A stretch of DNA of 16,297 bases. It comes from a virus. Taxonomy: Duplodnaviria > Heunggongvirae > Uroviricota > Caudoviricetes. The notes below the pieces were generated by a model, which searched no databases, had not been told where the DNA came from, and saw only the letters and a list, made by a program, of their open reading frames with translations. Below are positions 1 to 16,212 of this stretch, piece by piece. The translations under genes were made by a program, and so were the position numbers. Numbering within the stretch: the stretch's first letter is position 1; each line of letters begins with the position of its first letter. The stretch is from IMG/VR virus record IMGVR_UViG_3300029033_000070, positions 1-16,297 of that record; one strand, 5' to 3'.

Positions 1-55
1 TTATGAATTCTGGTTAAAATCCATTCGATTATAAAAATGTATATCTCATGCTGTT

Positions 56-81
56 GCCCGAACCCACTCGGGCTTTTTTTT
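56..81 (+). terminator. Intrinsic terminator for a plus-strand transcript entering from the left
   Basis: Hairpin gcccga-acccac-tcgggc (56-73) followed by an 8-T run (74-81) on the + strand. It is convergent with the minus-strand terminator at 86-111. Confidence 0.5.
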
Positions 82-385: not shown

Positions 386-573
386 TGGAAGGATAGCGGT
401 CATGTGATGCCGGTTTCCCGGTAACTCAGCACCGGTATCTGAGTCAACGTTTTCTCTACTGGGTCATTTCCGATACGCCCTGCCTGCTGACAGGCTTTCA
501 TCACATCTGAAAATATAGCACCCTGACTGATACTGTAGTACCCAAGGTTCCAGAAACTGTGATGTATCCGGCA

Positions 574-745
574 CAGAAAAGCCCCTCCGGAGAGGGGCTG
601 GAGAGTGGCGCTATGTGCCATTGCATGGTGCCGGGTGCCTCCCGGTGAGTTCAGTATCAGCACCTGAACCCGCACAGAAAGGATAAGGGTCGGTGACAAA
701 ACACCAGTTGCTGATTGCCCCTCCGCACAGGGGGATTCACCATGC
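574..745 (-). ncRNA. Structured RNA-like element, copy 2 (diverged paralogue of 86-262)
   Basis: Same block architecture as copy 1: closing helix catggtg/caccatg (+ 738-745 and near 620), hairpin cccct-gtgcgg-agggg, hairpin ccggg-aggca-cccgg, terminator gcccctc-tccg-gaggggc + TTTTCT (+ 575-598). Upstream TGtTAAAAG and TTGACT motifs at the same spacing as in copy 1. Confidence 0.4.
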
Positions 746-913
746 CAGTTTCTTTTAACAAACTCCCCGCAAACCAGACAACAGTCAACCGCCTGAATTG
801 TGAGGTATTTAAAAATTTCAACGGGTAACTGATACCCTGCTAATCGCCTGATGCTTTCTTTTTCAGCAACGGGAAAGCAACAACCACCACACCCACCAGC
901 CGCCCATTTACCA

Positions 914-1327: not shown

Positions 1328-1720
1328 CTAATCATTTTTTACTTTTTTGGGCAGCCAGTCGTCCATCTCCAGCCTTACACCCAGCATCGACAGACATCCG
1401 TCAATAAATCCTTCAGCAATCTGCATCTCAATTCGTATTGCCTTTTCGCTCTTCTTTCTTGTTCTGGCAATCTGCCTTTTTGATATGCGCAGCAGATAAT
1501 GAGCTACCAGCAGCGAATACTCGTCCGGTTTTTTCTTCTTCAGGCGCGTAAGGCAGTTTTCGATGATAAGGCCGTCATCATCGCTGCAGGCCGGGCGAGG
1601 TTTAGCGGTGGATGGTAAAAGGCCTTTAAATCCAGCAGCTATCGGAGAATAGTCCACCCCGGCGTTACCACTTGCCGCCCATGCCCCCCAGCGTTCGAGA
1701 ACCATCTGAATATCACGCAT
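1328..1720 (-). CDS. Late-gene antitermination protein Q (phage 82/21/QuuD-like family)
   Basis: Translation MRDIQMVLERWGAWAA...LLVAHYLLRISKRQIARTRKKSEKAIRIEMQIAEGFIDGCL matches my memory of Q82-type antiterminators. The ORF-track start at 1735 is a TTG; the ATG at 1720 has GGAG 8 nt upstream, so 1720 is preferred (130 aa). Confidence 0.8.
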   Translation of the reverse strand: MRDIQMVLERWGAWAASGNAGVDYSPIAAGFKGLLPSTAKPRPACSDDDGLIIENCLTRLKKKKPDEYSLLVAHYLLRISKRQIARTRKKSEKAIRIEMQIAEGFIDGCLSMLGVRLEMDDWLPKKVKND

Positions 1721-1737
1721 CAACTTTCTCCACAAAA

Positions 1738-3267: not shown

Positions 3268-4083
3268 TCAGTGAACGGTATCGAGCAGCTTTAACAGCTC
3301 AGGGAATCGGGATTCGAAGAAATGCGGCTGCGTCTCGCGCGGATTTGCAGGACTGGTGATGTTCTTGCCGAACATGCAGCCTTTCGCTGTCAGCGACCAG
3401 AATTTTTTGATGTTGTTAATCGCGGTACGGCTGTATCGTTCGCGTTGTTCAACGATCCCCAGCTTCGCCATCTGGTGATATGCCTGATTAGCCGTCAGGC
3501 GGATACCATACTGCTTCAGCAGTGCACTCAGCGACAGCGTAGGGCGGCTTGAACCATCTGGCGCATCAGCAGGTGCATCAATGGCATAGATCGGCATAAG
3601 TTCAGGAAGACCAGCTACCTTTGATAATTTCTGGTATGCACCAAGTTTCGAGGAGTTTGACAGATTTAGAGTCTTTGCTGCTGATTCAAGCAGAATGACC
3701 CCGGATTTAATTTTGTCGGATGTGGTTTCTTCTGGTGATGAATTATGAAGCGCATCAAAAGTACGTATCACTTTTAAGCTGAATGCCGGGCTGATCCACA
3801 TTGCATATGCATAGACCAGCTCTTTACAGACATACGTCCCACCATTGCGCCCCTGAATGGTGATGACAGGAATACTACGGGAATCTCCCGTAGTTTCTTC
3901 TTCCAATAATTCCACAAGAGCCTTCGTTTCAGGACGACGCATAAACTCGTGAACTTCCAGCGAACGGGAGGAGCGATTCTCACCAGCGGCAAGAAGAGCA
4001 GCTTTCTGAAGGTCGTTAAGACAGTAGTTAGATTCGAAGTACTGGCGCACAGAAACGCCATCAATTACAAGCAACTGATTCAT
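3268..4083 (-). CDS. KilA-N domain protein (antirepressor-like)
   Basis: Motif QGRNGGTYVCKELVYAYAMWISPAF is typical of KilA-N domains. The ORF-track start at 4095 is a GTG; the ATG at 4083 is preceded by GGAG 7 nt upstream, so 4083 is preferred (271 aa). Confidence 0.7.
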   Translation of the reverse strand: MNQLLVIDGVSVRQYFESNYCLNDLQKAALLAAGENRSSRSLEVHEFMRRPETKALVELLEEETTGDSRSIPVITIQGRNGGTYVCKELVYAYAMWISPAFSLKVIRTFDALHNSSPEETTSDKIKSGVILLESAAKTLNLSNSSKLGAYQKLSKVAGLPELMPIYAIDAPADAPDGSSRPTLSLSALLKQYGIRLTANQAYHQMAKLGIVEQRERYSRTAINNIKKFWSLTAKGCMFGKNITSPANPRETQPHFFESRFPELLKLLDTVH

Positions 4084-4139
4084 TGGTTTCTCCACAAATT
4101 TTTATCCACGAGCGGGACTGCACTCCCTTTTCGTTGATG

Positions 4140-4245
4140 CAGGATGAACTTACTGCGATTTTTAATAGTTATCAAGGATACACTGTTCATAAATACAGTA
4201 TCTTTAACGAGGTAATACCCAAATTTAGGGTGTTGCTCAATTCCG
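4140..4245 (-). promoter_or_regulatory. Promoter region with a consensus LexA (SOS) box upstream of the KilA-N gene
   Basis: + 4181-4200 cactgttcataaatacagta = CTGT-N8-ACAG with AT-rich spacer (tactgtatttatgaacagtg on the minus strand). Flanked on the minus strand by two sigma70-like promoters: TTGATA-17-TAAGTT (-35 at 4170-4175, -10 at 4147-4152) and TTGAGC-17-TATTAC (-35 at 4235-4240, -10 at 4212-4217). Confidence 0.5.
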
Positions 4246-4641
4246 TTACCGAGTTGCTAATTTGCAACTCGCTTTTTCGTACTTACTGATAGTGATCTCG
4301 ACCTTCCCTTCCGGGATAACCGGTCCCCACTCCACCAGCATTCTTTTCACCTGGCTGTCGTCTTCCCACACACCCGCGTGGGTCAGGGCGTCAAACAGCG
4401 CCTTGTTATAGTTGTCCAGATCGCGGATCCGGTTATCCGGAGGAAACAACACGATCTCCACTGAAGCAGGTGCCGACGTTGGTTTCGGCAGACGACGTAA
4501 CTGCTCAACTATTGCTGCACACGCCGCGCTCTGGAATTTTCGCCCCGCCGCGCTTATCAGGCTCTTACCAGCAAACGCCCCTTTGTTAGGGTGTCGCCAG
4601 TACGTGTTCACGCTGGGCGGAAAAGGCAGTATTAGCTTCAT
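4246..4641 (-). CDS. rusA: Holliday junction resolvase RusA
   Basis: 131-aa translation carries the RusA-family DLDN/DD signature (DNRIRDLDNYNKALFDALTHAGVWEDDSQV). ATGA overlap with the upstream gene. Confidence 0.85.
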   Translation of the reverse strand: MKLILPFPPSVNTYWRHPNKGAFAGKSLISAAGRKFQSAACAAIVEQLRRLPKPTSAPASVEIVLFPPDNRIRDLDNYNKALFDALTHAGVWEDDSQVKRMLVEWGPVIPEGKVEITISKYEKASCKLATR

Positions 4642-4964
4642 ACTTTCAGGCCCCTCTCATGTAACCAGTGGGTTGCACGCAGCCTTGCGTTTTCCTCACC
4701 GGCAAGCAGTGCGCGGATAATCCCGACCGCCTCGCTGTCGTCGTCCTTCATCGCAGTATGAAGCGTTATCCCCCGGGCCACGCCACGCTTTATCGTGATG
4801 ACGCCTTTTTTCTCCAGTGCGCGAAGATGCTCCACCGCTGCATTCACCGAACGGTATCCCAGCATGGTTGCCACCTCCTGATTGGTTGGCGGGAAGCCAC
4901 GTTCTTTCTGATAAGAAATCAGCATATCCAGCACCTGCTGCTGGCATTGAGTTAATGTCGTCAT
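4638..4964 (-). CDS. LexA DNA-binding-domain-only protein (no S24 peptidase domain)
   Basis: MTTLTQCQQQVLDMLISYQKERGFPPTNQEVATMLGYRSVNAAVEHLRALEKKGVITIKRGVARGITL aligns along its length with the LexA N-terminal winged helix (LTxRQQEVxDxIxxxxxxxGxPPTxxEIAxxLGFRSPNAAEEHLKALxRKGVIEI...RGIRL). Only ~35 residues follow and they lack the Ser/Lys protease motifs. ATGA overlaps at both ends. Confidence 0.8.
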   Translation of the reverse strand: MTTLTQCQQQVLDMLISYQKERGFPPTNQEVATMLGYRSVNAAVEHLRALEKKGVITIKRGVARGITLHTAMKDDDSEAVGIIRALLAGEENARLRATHWLHERGLKV

Positions 4965-7384: not shown

Positions 7385-7605
7385 GCCACACCTCCCAGAC
7401 GCTTAAACATTTTTCCGGAGCAAAAGGCTATAAGCGGCATACTGACGCGGTAATTACGGCCCAGCGGTTCACAAATCACCTTCTGACATTCACGGTCAAC
7501 CAGGCTAACACGTAGAACATGCCCTGCAGGCGTGGTGTACCACTGACCAGGACGAGGACAACGGAAAGTCTGATTGGTAAACCGTTTGAAAATATTCCGG
7601 ATCAT
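7381..7605 (-). CDS. Hypothetical small protein (74 aa)
   Basis: ATG at 7605 overlaps the stop of the Rha-domain ORF (ATGA). No family recognised. Confidence 0.4.
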   Translation of the reverse strand: MIRNIFKRFTNQTFRCPRPGQWYTTPAGHVLRVSLVDRECQKVICEPLGRNYRVSMPLIAFCSGKMFKRLGGVA

Positions 7606-8753
7606 TTGCGCCCCCTTACCTCTGAAGGGTTCAGCGACAAATTTATGAGACTGGCCAGTAGCGCCGCGTCGTTGATGCGGTCATACAGACTTACAGCCAG
7701 CGGGGATTCGGCTTTTGCCAACATGGGATAAAGCTGCTGCAGCCAGACCTTGTGGATTACCGACAGGTGGGAGTAAAGCACGCTGGCGTTATCTGCGGCA
7801 TCGCTCAGCGTGGATGGCTTTGAAAGCAGTTTTTCCATCTGGTTAAAGGCATTGATGTATGCCTCTTTGAACCGGGCAGCACGTTTACCCGTGAAACCCA
7901 TAGCAAGAAACGCAAAACCGTCGCGGGTGATTTGGTAACAAGGGAGTTTGCGGCCTGATGCGTCGGTGTATTCACTTAACACAAAATTGTGTTCAGTAAA
8001 TTCAGCGGAACATTCGAGGTTTCTAATTCTATCTAAAACCCGCTCATGCCGTTTAGTAAAGTAATTAGCTACTGCAAGAGATGTGGTGACAACGCGACCA
8101 TTGATAATCGTGATTTCAGGGTGAGATTGGGTTGGGAGAGTAGTCATGGTGACAGCCCCTATGTTGAATTCAATGAACTCACCACCAAGGCTTTCCACGA
8201 CCATATAGGTGGTGAGACGTACAGGGGTGGAAATACCGGTCAACATAGAACCCGGCCCAACCGAAGTTGGCCCTGCACGCCCCACCATAATTTGGGCGTA
8301 ACGATGCTCATGACACGAAAAAACCGCATGAGCGCGGTTGTGCTCTATATTGAATTTCGGGTTTCCACGCCCGGCACCCGCTTTATAAGGTGCCGGAACA
8401 GTGTAACGTCCCGGAATTGCAGAATCAATATGCTGGTGGTCCTTCACACTCAACAAAATCACGCCTGAATTTCCACAAAGGACTAAAGCACTCATGCGGG
8501 TAGTCTTTGCGAAGATAGATAACGCGCTGTGTTTCTGGCTCCCAACGAATAACATGGACATAAAGCCCTCTTCCGTCACGAAACCAGCGGTTAAGTTCCT
8601 GCACAACTCGCCCCCCACAGTCAGGTAAAGTTCTCTGTGGTTACTTACAGCCAGGTGATTTGGTAATCTGCATTCATGCCGTAACAACAGGTGTTCAGCG
8701 ACGCTGACCACCAGCTGTTGCGACAAACGGTTATTTGCCGTTAAACTATTCAT
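7602..8753 (-). CDS. Rha-family phage regulatory protein with ~200-aa N-terminal extension of unknown function
   Basis: Rha signature ITIINGRVVTTSLAVANYFTKRHERVLDRIRNL...YQITRDGFAFLAMGFTGKRAARFKEAYINAFNQME at aa ~210-300. ATG 8753 overlaps the upstream stop (ATGA), supporting the long form; an internal ATG at 8147 with AGGGG upstream would give a conventional ~181-aa Rha protein. Confidence 0.55.
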   Translation of the reverse strand: MNSLTANNRLSQQLVVSVAEHLLLRHECRLPNHLAVSNHRELYLTVGGELCRNLTAGFVTEEGFMSMLFVGSQKHSALSIFAKTTRMSALVLCGNSGVILLSVKDHQHIDSAIPGRYTVPAPYKAGAGRGNPKFNIEHNRAHAVFSCHEHRYAQIMVGRAGPTSVGPGSMLTGISTPVRLTTYMVVESLGGEFIEFNIGAVTMTTLPTQSHPEITIINGRVVTTSLAVANYFTKRHERVLDRIRNLECSAEFTEHNFVLSEYTDASGRKLPCYQITRDGFAFLAMGFTGKRAARFKEAYINAFNQMEKLLSKPSTLSDAADNASVLYSHLSVIHKVWLQQLYPMLAKAESPLAVSLYDRINDAALLASLINLSLNPSEVRGRK

Positions 8754-9657: not shown

Positions 9658-10350
9658 ATGAACATAGGAAATCGAGTCAGACAACTTCGCCAGGCGAAGA
9701 ACATGAAAATCGCCGATCTCGCTGAAGCAATAGGAGTGGATGCGGCGAATATCTCGCGCCTCGAAACAGGTAAGCAGAAACAATTCACTGAACAAGCCCT
9801 GAGTAATATTGCCAGGAGCTTAGGTGTTGATATTGCTGATCTCTTTACCTCAGACCTCAAAAGTAATACTGTATGTAAAAACAGTATTAGTGAGGATGTT
9901 GCGCAGGTGAAGGATGTATTCCGTATTGAAATGCTGGATGTCAGTGCCAGTGCGGGAAATGGCCTTATCCAGGGCGGTGATGTCATTGATGTGATTCATG
10001 CCATTGAATACAGAACTGATAATGCTGTATCGATGTTTGGTGGACGACCAGCAAATCACATTAAAGTTATCAACGTTCGTGGGGACAGTATGTGTCCAAC
10101 CATTGAGCCAGGAGATCTCATCTTCGTTGATATCAGTATCAATCAGTTTGATGGGGATGGTATCTATGTGTTTGGTTTTGATGATAAAATTTATGTCAAA
10201 CGACTGCAAATGATACCTGACAAACTACTGGTAATTTCTGATAACCAGATTTACCGTGAATGGGGAATTACCAGCGAAAATGAACACCGGTTTATGGTCT
10301 TTGGAAAGGTCTTAATCAGCCAGTCACAAACCCTTAAGCGACACAATTAA
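9658..10350 (+). CDS. cI: CI-type prophage repressor, HTH + S24 (LexA-like) self-cleaving peptidase domain
   Basis: N-terminal HTH (IGNRVRQLRQAKNMKIADLAEAIGVDAANISRLETGK); C-terminal GDSMCPTIEPGDLIFVD (catalytic Ser) and VKRL (Lys); an Ala-Gly pair in the linker (SASAGNG). Confidence 0.9.
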   Translation: MNIGNRVRQLRQAKNMKIADLAEAIGVDAANISRLETGKQKQFTEQALSNIARSLGVDIADLFTSDLKSNTVCKNSISEDVAQVKDVFRIEMLDVSASAGNGLIQGGDVIDVIHAIEYRTDNAVSMFGGRPANHIKVINVRGDSMCPTIEPGDLIFVDISINQFDGDGIYVFGFDDKIYVKRLQMIPDKLLVISDNQIYREWGITSENEHRFMVFGKVLISQSQTLKRHN

Positions 10351-15841: not shown

Positions 15842-16056
15842 GGTAAAAACGGTTTGCGGTAAAGCGAGAGTTAAGTAGAATTGCTGCGGGTGCTTGAGGC
15901 TGTCTGCCTCGGGCATGCCACCGTAAGGCAGACAGAGAAAAGCCCCAGTTAACATTATGCGTCTTGCAGGACGCTTAACATTAATCTGAGGCCAATTTCA
16001 TGCTAGTCACATGTAGGTTAGCCTCTTACACGCCGAAAGGCAAGGAGAAGCAGGCT

Positions 16057-16212
16057 ATGAAGCAGCAAAAGGCGATGTTAGTCGCCCTGATCGTCATCTG
16101 TATTACCGTCATTGTGACGGCACTGGTAACGAGGAAAGACCTCTGCGAGGTACGAATCCGAACCGGCCAGACGGAGGTCACTGTCTTCACAGCTTACGAA
16201 CCTGAGGAGTAA
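16057..16212 (+). CDS. hokD: Hok-family type I toxin (HokD/RelF-like)
   Basis: MKQQKAMLVALIVICITVIVTALVTRKDLCEVRIRTGQTEVTVFTAYEPEE is near-identical to HokD/RelF as I recall it. AAGGAG 9 nt upstream of ATG 16057; the track ORF from 16000 is an in-frame upstream extension. A 3' hairpin (cccgc-ttcg-gcggg) is cut by the window end. Confidence 0.8.
   Translation: MKQQKAMLVALIVICITVIVTALVTRKDLCEVRIRTGQTEVTVFTAYEPEE

Follow-up and report, generated by a model that had tools for sequence, protein, structure and literature searches.

The rusA–KilA-N locus and its setting

The window analysed here is the whole 16,297-nucleotide (nt) stretch of the IMG/VR virus record IMGVR_UViG_3300029033_000070. It represents the early and regulatory part of a lambdoid E. 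coli/Shigella prophage, and the element in question is a LexA (SOS) box at positions 4181–4200, between rusA and a gene encoding a KilA-N domain protein. On the minus strand, the genes follow each other in the order cro, cII, an Ash/Rha gene, the replication genes, the genes for a PerC-like protein, Dam, a 108-amino-acid (aa) protein that consists of a LexA_DNA_bind domain only, RusA and the KilA-N protein, a 171-aa open reading frame (ORF), a DUF968 gene and Q. The closest relatives of the rusA–KilA-N part are Escherichia phage PhiR49_1 and Shigella phage SfIV, while those of the immunity part are mEp460 and Stx2a-WGPS2-type phages. The gap between rusA and the KilA-N gene measures 162 bp, holds the LexA box and is the sole sizeable non-coding gap of the nin region. 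The distance from the box to cro/cI amounts to 5.4 kb, which places the boxed gene outside the immunity region. The features on which the argument rests are the following:

4181–4200, both strands: LexA (SOS) box, CACTGTTCATAAATACAGTA on the plus strand and TACTGTATTTATGAACAGTG on the minus strand (4200–4181)
4246–4641, minus strand: RusA, annotation verified
3268–4083, minus strand: KilA-N gene, 271 aa, with the ribosome-binding site (RBS) GGAG at 4093–4090; PF04383, phrog_129
4638–4964, minus strand: phage protein of 108 aa with a LexA DNA-binding domain only (LexA_DNA_bind match)
1328–1735, minus strand: Q, late-gene activator
9658–10350, plus strand: cI, helix-turn-helix (HTH) domain and Peptidase_S24, with GDSM Ser144, Lys181 and Ala99-Gly100 retained

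Domain annotation agrees with the gene context given in an initial annotation of this DNA (rusA, KilA-N, 171-aa ORF, DUF968, Q) and with its description of CI as a repressor carrying a self-cleaving S24 domain, since Peptidase_S24, the Ser144/Lys181 pair and the Ala99-Gly100 site are all present.

A high-quality LexA box upstream of the KilA-N gene

The site at 4181–4200 had been reported to fit CTGT-N8-ACAG with an AT-rich spacer, and the sequence is present as described. On the minus strand, TACTGTATTTATGAACAGTG is palindromic at 19 of 20 positions, and at all 20 in SfIV and AZ187. The motif CTGT-N8-ACAG occurs three times in the window against an expectation of 0.17, a count that none of 200 shuffles reached. 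A weight-matrix scan, which the initial annotation had called for, was carried out with a symmetrised matrix built from 22 E. coli LexA boxes, of which the umuDC box alone was checked (MG1655). The box scores 21.9 bits (21.8–21.9), in the middle of the range of the training sites (12.9–26.8), and its heterology-index-like value is 5.3, with training sites at 0.5–9.0. In 200 order-1 Markov simulations of 16.3 kb, the best LexA site per simulated window reached 9.75 ± 2.85 bits on average and 20.94 at most. Because its score tops all 200 simulated windows and falls within the range of real boxes, the box is real and far beyond chance. Judged by its sequence, it is a high-quality LexA box in a promoter region, on a par with bona fide E. 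coli SOS boxes. The rest of the window stays at or below 9.5 bits on this matrix, except for a site at 9867–9886 (25.7 bits) that is treated below. The third CTGT-N8-ACAG match (8635–8650) was rejected as a LexA box, with 7.35 bits, a heterology index of 14.75 and poor flanks.

One distance needs correction. The box had been placed about 85 bp upstream of the KilA-N start codon; it ends 97 nt upstream of the annotated ATG (4083–4081), and the shorter figure fits solely an in-frame GTG at 4095.

Promoter-like elements around the box

Sigma-70-like sites were scored with a simple matrix for the −35, −10 and spacer, based on hexamer frequencies, over 162,660 positions in the window. As a positive control, the site just upstream of the Rfam-identified isrK ranks first and a site upstream of sok ranks high. 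Three minus-strand elements surround the box:

4175–4147, minus strand: P2, TTGATA-17-TAAGTT (TTGATA 4175–4170, TAAGTT 4152–4147), score 10.23, rank 3, predicted start near 4140, directed into KilA-N
4222–4195, minus strand: P1′, TTGGGT-16-TACTGT, score 5.46, no better than chance; its −10 is the first half-site of the box, start near 4188
4240–4212, minus strand: upstream element TTGAGC-17-TATTAC (TTGAGC 4240–4235, TATTAC 4217–4212), score 5.65, 99.91st percentile

The box had been proposed to lie between two promoter-like elements, TTGATA-17-TAAGTT and TTGAGC-17-TATTAC. Both hexamer pairs are present, and the first, as the third-best site of the window, stands up well, whereas the second scores at chance level. 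About 150 sites in the window equal the latter in score, it lacks the final T of the −10, and it lies inside a hairpin (4211–4237) that is more stable on the opposite strand, so that it was rejected as a promoter. A stricter promoter scan of the window listed neither pair. The core promoters that the box does cover are weak candidates only, namely P1′ on the minus strand and TTATCA-19-TACAGT on the plus strand. P1′ copies the layout of umuDC, which was verified in MG1655 as TTGATC-17-TACTGT followed by the box and then by 19 nt to the ATG.

The leader downstream of these elements contains a further conserved feature:

4108–4134, minus strand: 5′-untranslated region (5′-UTR) hairpin ACGA-aaa-GGGA-GUGCAG-UCCC-gc-UCGU with a (G/U)UGCAG loop, found upstream of almost all KilA-N homologs

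Its stems covary (GCGA/UCGC, GGGG/CCCC, GCGG/CCGC, UCAU/AUGA), and a −10-like TAnnGT, spaced identically from it, is semi-conserved in diverged KilA-N loci. Since the −10-like element and the covarying hairpin are kept in diverged loci, the KilA-N genes seem to have a promoter of their own. The hairpin could be a protein-binding RNA or DNA element. It also occurs at about 4835–4850 of locus L002 and, in loci L060–L091, just upstream of the KilA-N RBS, with two copies in L068, L081 and L082. Pairing of its GUGCAG loop with the C4 RNA encoded at 8205–8292 was considered and rejected, as C4 bears GUGCAG itself rather than the complement. Likewise rejected was a 31-codon upstream ORF that starts with TTG at 4175 and overlaps the KilA-N ATG; it has no RBS, and a common 11-bp deletion variant breaks its frame.

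The KilA-N protein itself matches the KilA-N domain (PF04383) and the phrog_129 family "transcriptional regulator" only. No match to Tum/Ant-type families was found, and a PDB sequence search, NCBIfam and PADLOC returned nothing useful. The initial annotation had called the gene antirepressor-like, a label that finds no support in homology to known antirepressors. Antirepressor modules go with a repressor that is not RecA-cleavable, and the CI encoded here has Peptidase_S24 with GDSM Ser144, Lys181 and the Ala99-Gly100 site. As a separate observation, the KilA-N coding region contains a terminator-like hairpin on the plus strand (3874–3894, nine pairs, then TTCTTCTTCC), against the direction of every gene there.

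Distribution and variation of the box

Of 5426 complete E. coli genomes, 186 contain the 177-bp intergenic region, in every case flanked by rusA and KilA-N, with 99–100% identity in most of them, 90–95% in 39 and 88.7% in one. In the phage collection it occurs in five records only, all at the same locus, and neither this collection nor the E. coli genomes contain homology to it outside the rusA–KilA-N context. Four variant copies were retrieved and aligned, and each retains an intact box. A search with the KilA-N N-terminal domain gave 80 IMG/VR loci, of which 51 carry a box of at least 15 bits at −117 or −106, including every listed locus with 98–100% identity in that domain. One KilA-N homolog with 59% aa identity and unrelated upstream sequence (L066) has a 16-bit LexA-like box at −116, the same distance from the start. 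In e14 of K-12, which has ymfK immunity as does SfIV, no box of at least 12 bits was found.

The locus is a mosaic. At a junction spanning about 3740–4280 (compared with 4017–4900 of L002), the last seven or so rusA codons, the intergenic region and the first 115 or so KilA-N codons belong to an allele other than the Stx2a_1447 type. The C-terminal 100 or so residues of KilA-N are near-identical to Stx2a_1447 (one mismatch), while the N-terminal 115 or so residues represent the different allele. The box thus travels with a module that reaches from the last rusA codons into the first third of KilA-N.

This mosaicism leaves room for a reading in which the site has no function and is either a chance palindrome or a relic of recombination at the rusA/KilA-N junction. 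Such a history would fit the confinement of the box to one nearly invariant allele, the half-site remnants (…GGATAAATGAACAGTG) at the same place in loci L062 and L067, and one of the 51 IMG/VR boxes, which is damaged (ACAG to AGAG, 15.4 bits). However, the SfIV and AZ187 variant shifts the box toward the consensus, with its last base changed to A to give a perfect TACTGT...ACAGTA, and the score of the box was not reached in any of the 200 simulated windows. The same window moreover holds a second box, in cI, that is clearly under selection, and LexA should bind in vivo to a site of such a score, so that a regulatory effect beside two promoters would be hard to avoid. We therefore consider a site without function very unlikely.

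Structure on the opposite strand

Next to the box, the plus strand contains the following element:

4211–4277, plus strand: two hairpins and a T-run, candidate small RNA or terminator (4211–4237, 10 pairs; 4250–4271, 8 pairs of which 5 are G-C; then CTTTTT)

The hairpin at 4250–4271 lies 50 nt past the box and resembles an intrinsic terminator; the minus strand has no T-run there. For positions 4205–4285, the predicted fold has −27.7 kcal/mol on the plus strand (z −5.5; none of 200 shuffles as good) versus −20.7 kcal/mol on the minus strand (z −2.7), which is weaker because three plus-strand G·U pairs become A·C. Two plus-strand promoter candidates were seen, TTGATG-17-GATTTT (7.65), with the box at +12 to +32, and TTATCA-19-TACAGT (5.83), with the box over the spacer and −10.

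These features open the serious alternative that the box mainly controls a plus-strand promoter and thereby an SOS-induced structured RNA of about 70–110 nt, which would end at the 4250–4271 hairpin and T-run and be antisense to the end of rusA and the rusA–KilA-N spacer. Any LexA effect on KilA-N would then be indirect, through competition of back-to-back promoters or through antisense pairing. The terminator-like hairpin with a T-run past the box on the plus strand only, the strong plus-strand fold with the three plus-strand-only G·U pairs in the 4211–4237 hairpin, and the classical repressing positions of the box on both plus-strand candidates are what such a unit would look like. The absence of the whole box–hairpin–terminator block from diverged homologs is also as expected of a self-contained inserted unit. 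Yet the plus-strand promoters are mediocre, the terminator hairpin doubles as coding sequence for the RusA C-terminus, and natural variants, which are few, are ambiguous with respect to the hairpins. No Rfam family matches positions 4084–4300, although matches elsewhere in the window show that the search worked, and no non-coding RNA is annotated at the rusA–KilA-N spacer in four RefSeq copies. On balance, an SOS-induced RNA as the main target of the box appears unlikely.

Two further ideas about this segment were discarded. A small plus-strand ORF past the box would have GAGG at 4209–4212 and no start codon within reach, and the hairpin at the end of rusA does not qualify as a Gifsy-like insulating terminator of the minus strand, its T-run being on the other strand.

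Host LexA and KilA-N transcription

The best reading of the locus is that host LexA controls KilA-N transcription through the operator at 4181–4200, a view that we hold with about as much confidence as doubt. Direct SOS control of KilA-N had been proposed in the initial annotation; the quality and position of the box and the strong promoter-like element toward KilA-N speak for it, while the repression geometry does not. LexA binding, repression, SOS induction and a part for KilA-N in prophage induction are what we infer from the site, its quality and position, the promoter-like elements and the gene order.

In the lysogen, LexA on the box would hold down transcription toward KilA-N. It could occlude the weak, umuDC-type P1′, whose −10 is the TACTGT half-site and whose start would lie near 4188, and it could also block upstream contacts of the alpha C-terminal domain (alpha-CTD/UP contacts) and the −35 edge of P2, with its start near 4140. 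Upon DNA damage, active RecA would lead to self-cleavage of LexA, and KilA-N would be made before CI leaves OR. The 171-aa ORF, DUF968 and Q could be co-expressed by read-through. These genes are spaced 2–15 nt from one another and from KilA-N, and the terminator-like sites on the minus strand are weak only, so that they may follow KilA-N; the sequence would thus allow transcription from the KilA-N promoter to continue to Q. Once the pR operon opens, the non-cleavable LexA-domain protein of the phage would probably re-occupy the same box.

Several observations weigh against control by host LexA. The box would lie at about −41 to −60 of P2, with its centre near −50.5, and thus off the core of the sole strong promoter, and a repressor site at −41 to −60 is atypical for LexA, while the promoter that the box does overlap, P1′ with its score of 5.46, is no better than chance. 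Most KilA-N homologs at 51–87% identity have no LexA box, and the common Stx2a_1447-type allele lacks the intergenic region altogether, with rusA and KilA-N 20 bp apart, which indicates that LexA control is not a general property of KilA-N genes. Among the copies that do carry the box, 89–100% identity leaves too little variation for conservation to prove selection, and the box-bearing segment of about 100 bp resembles an insertion whose structure is biased to the opposite strand. A full-text literature search with thin coverage of subscription journals found no description of a LexA box at KilA-N and no expression or binding data for it. The most that the sequence would support is a weak LexA-occluded promoter followed by a strong promoter that LexA hinders from upstream alone.

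A second LexA box inside cI

The initial annotation had passed over a stronger, near-consensus LexA box, which lies within the repressor gene:

9867–9886, both strands: second LexA box, TACTGTATGTAAAAACAGTA, inside cI, in the linker between HTH and S24; 25.7 bits
9844–10350, plus strand: candidate nested SOS-inducible gene, consisting of TTTACC-17-TACTGT, the box, GAGGA at 9892–9896, GTG at 9907 and a 147-aa C-terminal fragment of CI

In a scan of cI homologs with one genome per species (n = 24; 54–96% aa identity for the box carriers), 20 of the 24 have a box of 19–29 bits at +209 from the ATG (+206 in Proteus). The carriers are Enterobacterales, namely Shigella, Citrobacter, Kluyvera, Pseudescherichia, Klebsiella, Buttiauxella, Trabulsiella, Pantoea, Mixta, Rosenbergiella, Proteus and Serratia; one more box-carrying contig is labelled Actinomadura, a label taken as contamination. 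In the SfII, Citrobacter and Klebsiella homologs, the box equals the umuDC box letter for letter. Column identity amounts to 0.91 in the box (0.97–0.98 in its half-sites) versus 0.49–0.57 in the adjoining linker, and the preservation of the box across genera is evidence that selection acts on host LexA sites in this lineage. Among cI homologs with a LexA box, the most distant one, that of Phaseolibacter flectens (L112; 40% identity), has no internal box and carries one of 18 bits 235 nt upstream of the gene.

A promoter-like element precedes the box, and a conserved RBS and start codon come after it. The sense −35-like hexamer 17 bp upstream of TACTGT gives a promoter score of 7.34 in the window, on a scale on which pR scores 8.04 and the pL candidate 7.75, and in homologs with a decayed −35-like hexamer TATAAT replaces the box spacer, together with a new −35 (10.8). 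A promoter reading antisense toward cro was rejected, being less consistent (mean 6.27 versus 7.63 for sense) and having a −35 that is not conserved. In most homologs, GAGG, GGAG or AGGAGG and then an in-frame GTG (ATG in two Pantoea homologs) follow 20–32 nt after the box. In a codon alignment, this start column is the best of 231, with a start-like codon in 71% and an upstream Shine-Dalgarno sequence in 67%. GTG makes up 78% of the Val codons in this column versus 0–42% at twelve other conserved Val columns, and the two Dryocola homologs that lack a good box encode Gly at this position. Met93 was discarded as an internal start since it is not conserved.

The 147-aa candidate product would begin at Val84, whereas the autocleavage fragment of CI has 131 aa and begins at Gly100. 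It has the domain layout of UmuD, with a short arm in front of the Ala99-Gly100 cleavage site and then the S24 core, and shares 36% identity with UmuD over 83 residues. This arrangement suggests, from sequence comparison, that the cI locus encodes an SOS-inducible, N-terminally truncated, UmuD-like CI fragment. Poisoning of CI dimers would be the most economical function of such a predicted fragment, with a RecA* decoy as the alternative. The parallel with umuDC of E. coli includes a −35, a spacer of 16–17 bp, TACTGT as −10 and the box at both sites of the window and, in cI, the start of an approximately UmuD-sized S24 protein about 20–30 nt after the box. In contrast to umuDC, the copy at KilA-N has a poor −35 (TTGGGT) and no nearby start codon, and the copy in cI lies inside another reading frame. 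The nearest case found is Hex of phage 434, a second product that overlaps a lambdoid repressor gene and is reported to modulate RecA-dependent induction (PMC3564112). Hex, however, reportedly comes from an ORF on the PRM transcript that overlaps the repressor gene only in part, whereas the candidate here is an in-frame truncated CI with a LexA-controlled internal promoter of its own. A description of a LexA box inside cI or of a nested CI product was not found in the literature search, subscription journals being thinly covered, and nothing else in the window is as novel as the nested cI element.

A third LexA box of 24 bits, TACTGTAAAAATATCCAGTT, is present in sister prophages (O104:H4 C227-11, Stx2a_1447; L011 4708–4727 and L002 456–475), where it spans codons 3–9 of a DNA methyltransferase gene downstream of Q. 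Two boxes in 16.3 kb and a third in sister prophages indicate that this phage group has repeatedly been wired to LexA.

A phage LexA-domain protein as a possible second ligand

The 108-aa protein encoded at 4638–4964 aligns with residues 2–70 of E. coli LexA (E 6e-16), with 36 of 69 aligned residues identical by our own count. PF01726 covers its residues 1–65, and the match to TIGR00498 is restricted to model positions 1–91 of 203. The DNA-contacting residues of LexA helix III are Ser39, Asn41, Ala42, Glu44 and Glu45 (PMC3091678), four of which are kept (Ser39, Asn41, Ala42 and Glu45), while Glu44 is replaced by Val. The protein has no S24 domain, no cleavage site and no Ser/Lys dyad. In a structure model with a mean pLDDT of 79, a winged HTH is followed, behind a flexible linker, by a conserved tail (residues 74–103) folded as a helical hairpin, and it is plausible from this model that the tail substitutes for the LexA dimerisation domain. 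The gene order is always Dam, LexA-like, RusA, and the protein is represented in 63 phage records and about 170 protein clusters, none of which has a functional name and whose hosts are nearly all Escherichia/Shigella, Citrobacter, Salmonella and Hafnia. The literature search with its thin coverage of subscription journals found no functional description of the enterobacterial protein.

Going by its retained recognition residues, the protein is very likely able to bind both boxes. The initial annotation had named it as a protein to be used in binding checks and had not weighed it as a second ligand. In the stronger form of this idea, the phage protein rather than host LexA would be the biologically important ligand of both boxes in the window and of host SOS boxes. 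Being non-cleavable and expressed with the pR operon once induction or infection has occurred, it would shut off or time the boxes during lytic growth, which is compatible with binding of host LexA in the lysogen. The position of its gene two genes upstream of KilA-N, the alignment with LexA 2–70 and the four retained helix III contacts, the missing S24 domain and cleavage site, the modelled hairpin tail that could replace the dimerisation domain and the constant context in 63 phage records all agree with such a role. There is also a precedent in GIL01, whose truncated LexA homologue gp6 activates a late promoter from a site at −43.5 (PMC6182141). The boxes and the paralog are, however, not tied together: the protein is also found in phages with a boxless KilA-N gene (Stx2a_1447, SfII), and the cI box in phages without the protein (ST64B, Klebsiella P7641). 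As they occur apart, the paralog is not the reason why the boxes exist. The replacement of Glu44 by Val may alter specificity, and dimerisation is presumed. A box centred near −50.5 is, moreover, on the wrong face of the DNA for CRP-style activation. That the phage protein is the ligand that matters therefore seems improbable to us.

GIL01 is similar in that phage promoters carry host-LexA boxes and the phage itself encodes a LexA winged-helix domain without protease (Fornelos et al. 2018, PMC6182141). It differs in being a Gram-positive tectivirus without CI. Its gp6 is shorter, with only a 14-residue C-terminal extension completing the wing in a homology model, recognises another palindrome and acts as an activator from −43.5. 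In the protein here, the LexA recognition residues are retained and the tail is a helical one of 40 aa.

Comparison with known LexA-dependent prophages

Control by host LexA of genes outside the immunity region is an established route of prophage induction, known from Gifsy, 186 and N15 (PMC3121763). The Gifsy LexA box lies downstream of the replication genes, is preceded by palindromes and controls induction genes (PMC3121763). The dinI–antirepressor locus of Gifsy-1, -2 and -3 (Lemire et al. 2011, PMC3121763) resembles the KilA-N locus in that a lambdoid prophage carries a box between the replication genes and Q, away from the immunity region and preceded by palindromes, and in that the module gives the prophage a LexA-dependent input. 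The Gifsy repressors, however, are not cleaved, so that Gifsy induction rests wholly on small antirepressors, whereas here CI has a complete S24 apparatus. Further differences are the 271-aa KilA-N protein behind the box, the T-run of the palindromes on the opposite strand and the lack of sequence homology.

Tum of 186 and AntC of N15 are similar in that, as cited in PMC3121763 and PMC8044961, a host LexA operator on a phage promoter turns SOS into induction without repressor cleavage. They belong to a P2-like phage and a linear plasmid prophage, respectively, the proteins are unrelated, and their function is proven. Compared with Gifsy, 186 and N15, the prophage described here would be a variant that adds LexA control to a cleavable CI, along with a non-cleavable phage LexA paralog.

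A wider proposal is that this lineage is wired to LexA at three levels beyond CI self-cleavage, namely the nested cI gene, the LexA-gated promoter region of KilA-N–DUF968–Q and the non-cleavable paralog. In it, a CI fragment of about 147 aa, made only under SOS, would heterodimerise with CI as a dominant-negative antirepressor or act as a RecA* decoy, late-gene activation would answer LexA directly, and the paralog would re-close all SOS operators in lytic growth. As a joint claim, this is tentative and rather doubtful.

Consequences for prophage induction

Less damage is needed for cleavage of LexA than for that of lambdoid CI repressors. Should LexA gate KilA-N directly, and Q by read-through, expression of late-gene activators could start at damage that spares CI, and the prophage may sense DNA damage in part independently of its own repressor. 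These prophages are common in pathogenic E. coli and Shigella, with O104:H4 C227-11 and strains of O157, O111 and O55 among the 186 carriers in 5426 complete E. coli genomes, and they are closely related to Stx2 phages. Such gating would bear on spontaneous induction, on antibiotic-triggered release of toxin and phage and on cross-talk between co-resident prophages. The phage LexA paralog would be a candidate for a viral shut-off of the host SOS response. The box inside cI may matter more than the one at KilA-N, being conserved from Escherichia to Serratia, Proteus and Pantoea, and an in-frame, SOS-inducible truncated repressor would be a coupling that we have not found described.

Other features of the window

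Rfam identifies several RNAs away from the two boxes: AsxR, the anti-Stx2 small RNA, at 26–78 (plus strand), the sok antitoxin RNA of a hok/sok module at 15888–16062 (plus strand) and two copies of STnc100 downstream of Q, at 82–291 and 569–774 (both minus strand). Within the 5′ part of the "383-aa" Ash/Rha ORF (7602–8753), the minus strand carries a C4 antisense RNA at 8205–8292 and isrK at 8317–8393, and the top sigma-70-like site of the whole window, TTGATT-17-TACACT at 8428–8400, lies just upstream of isrK. The antirepressor-like gene of the Ash/Rha ORF probably starts later than annotated, behind an RNA control module like that of P1 immI or Gifsy isrK.

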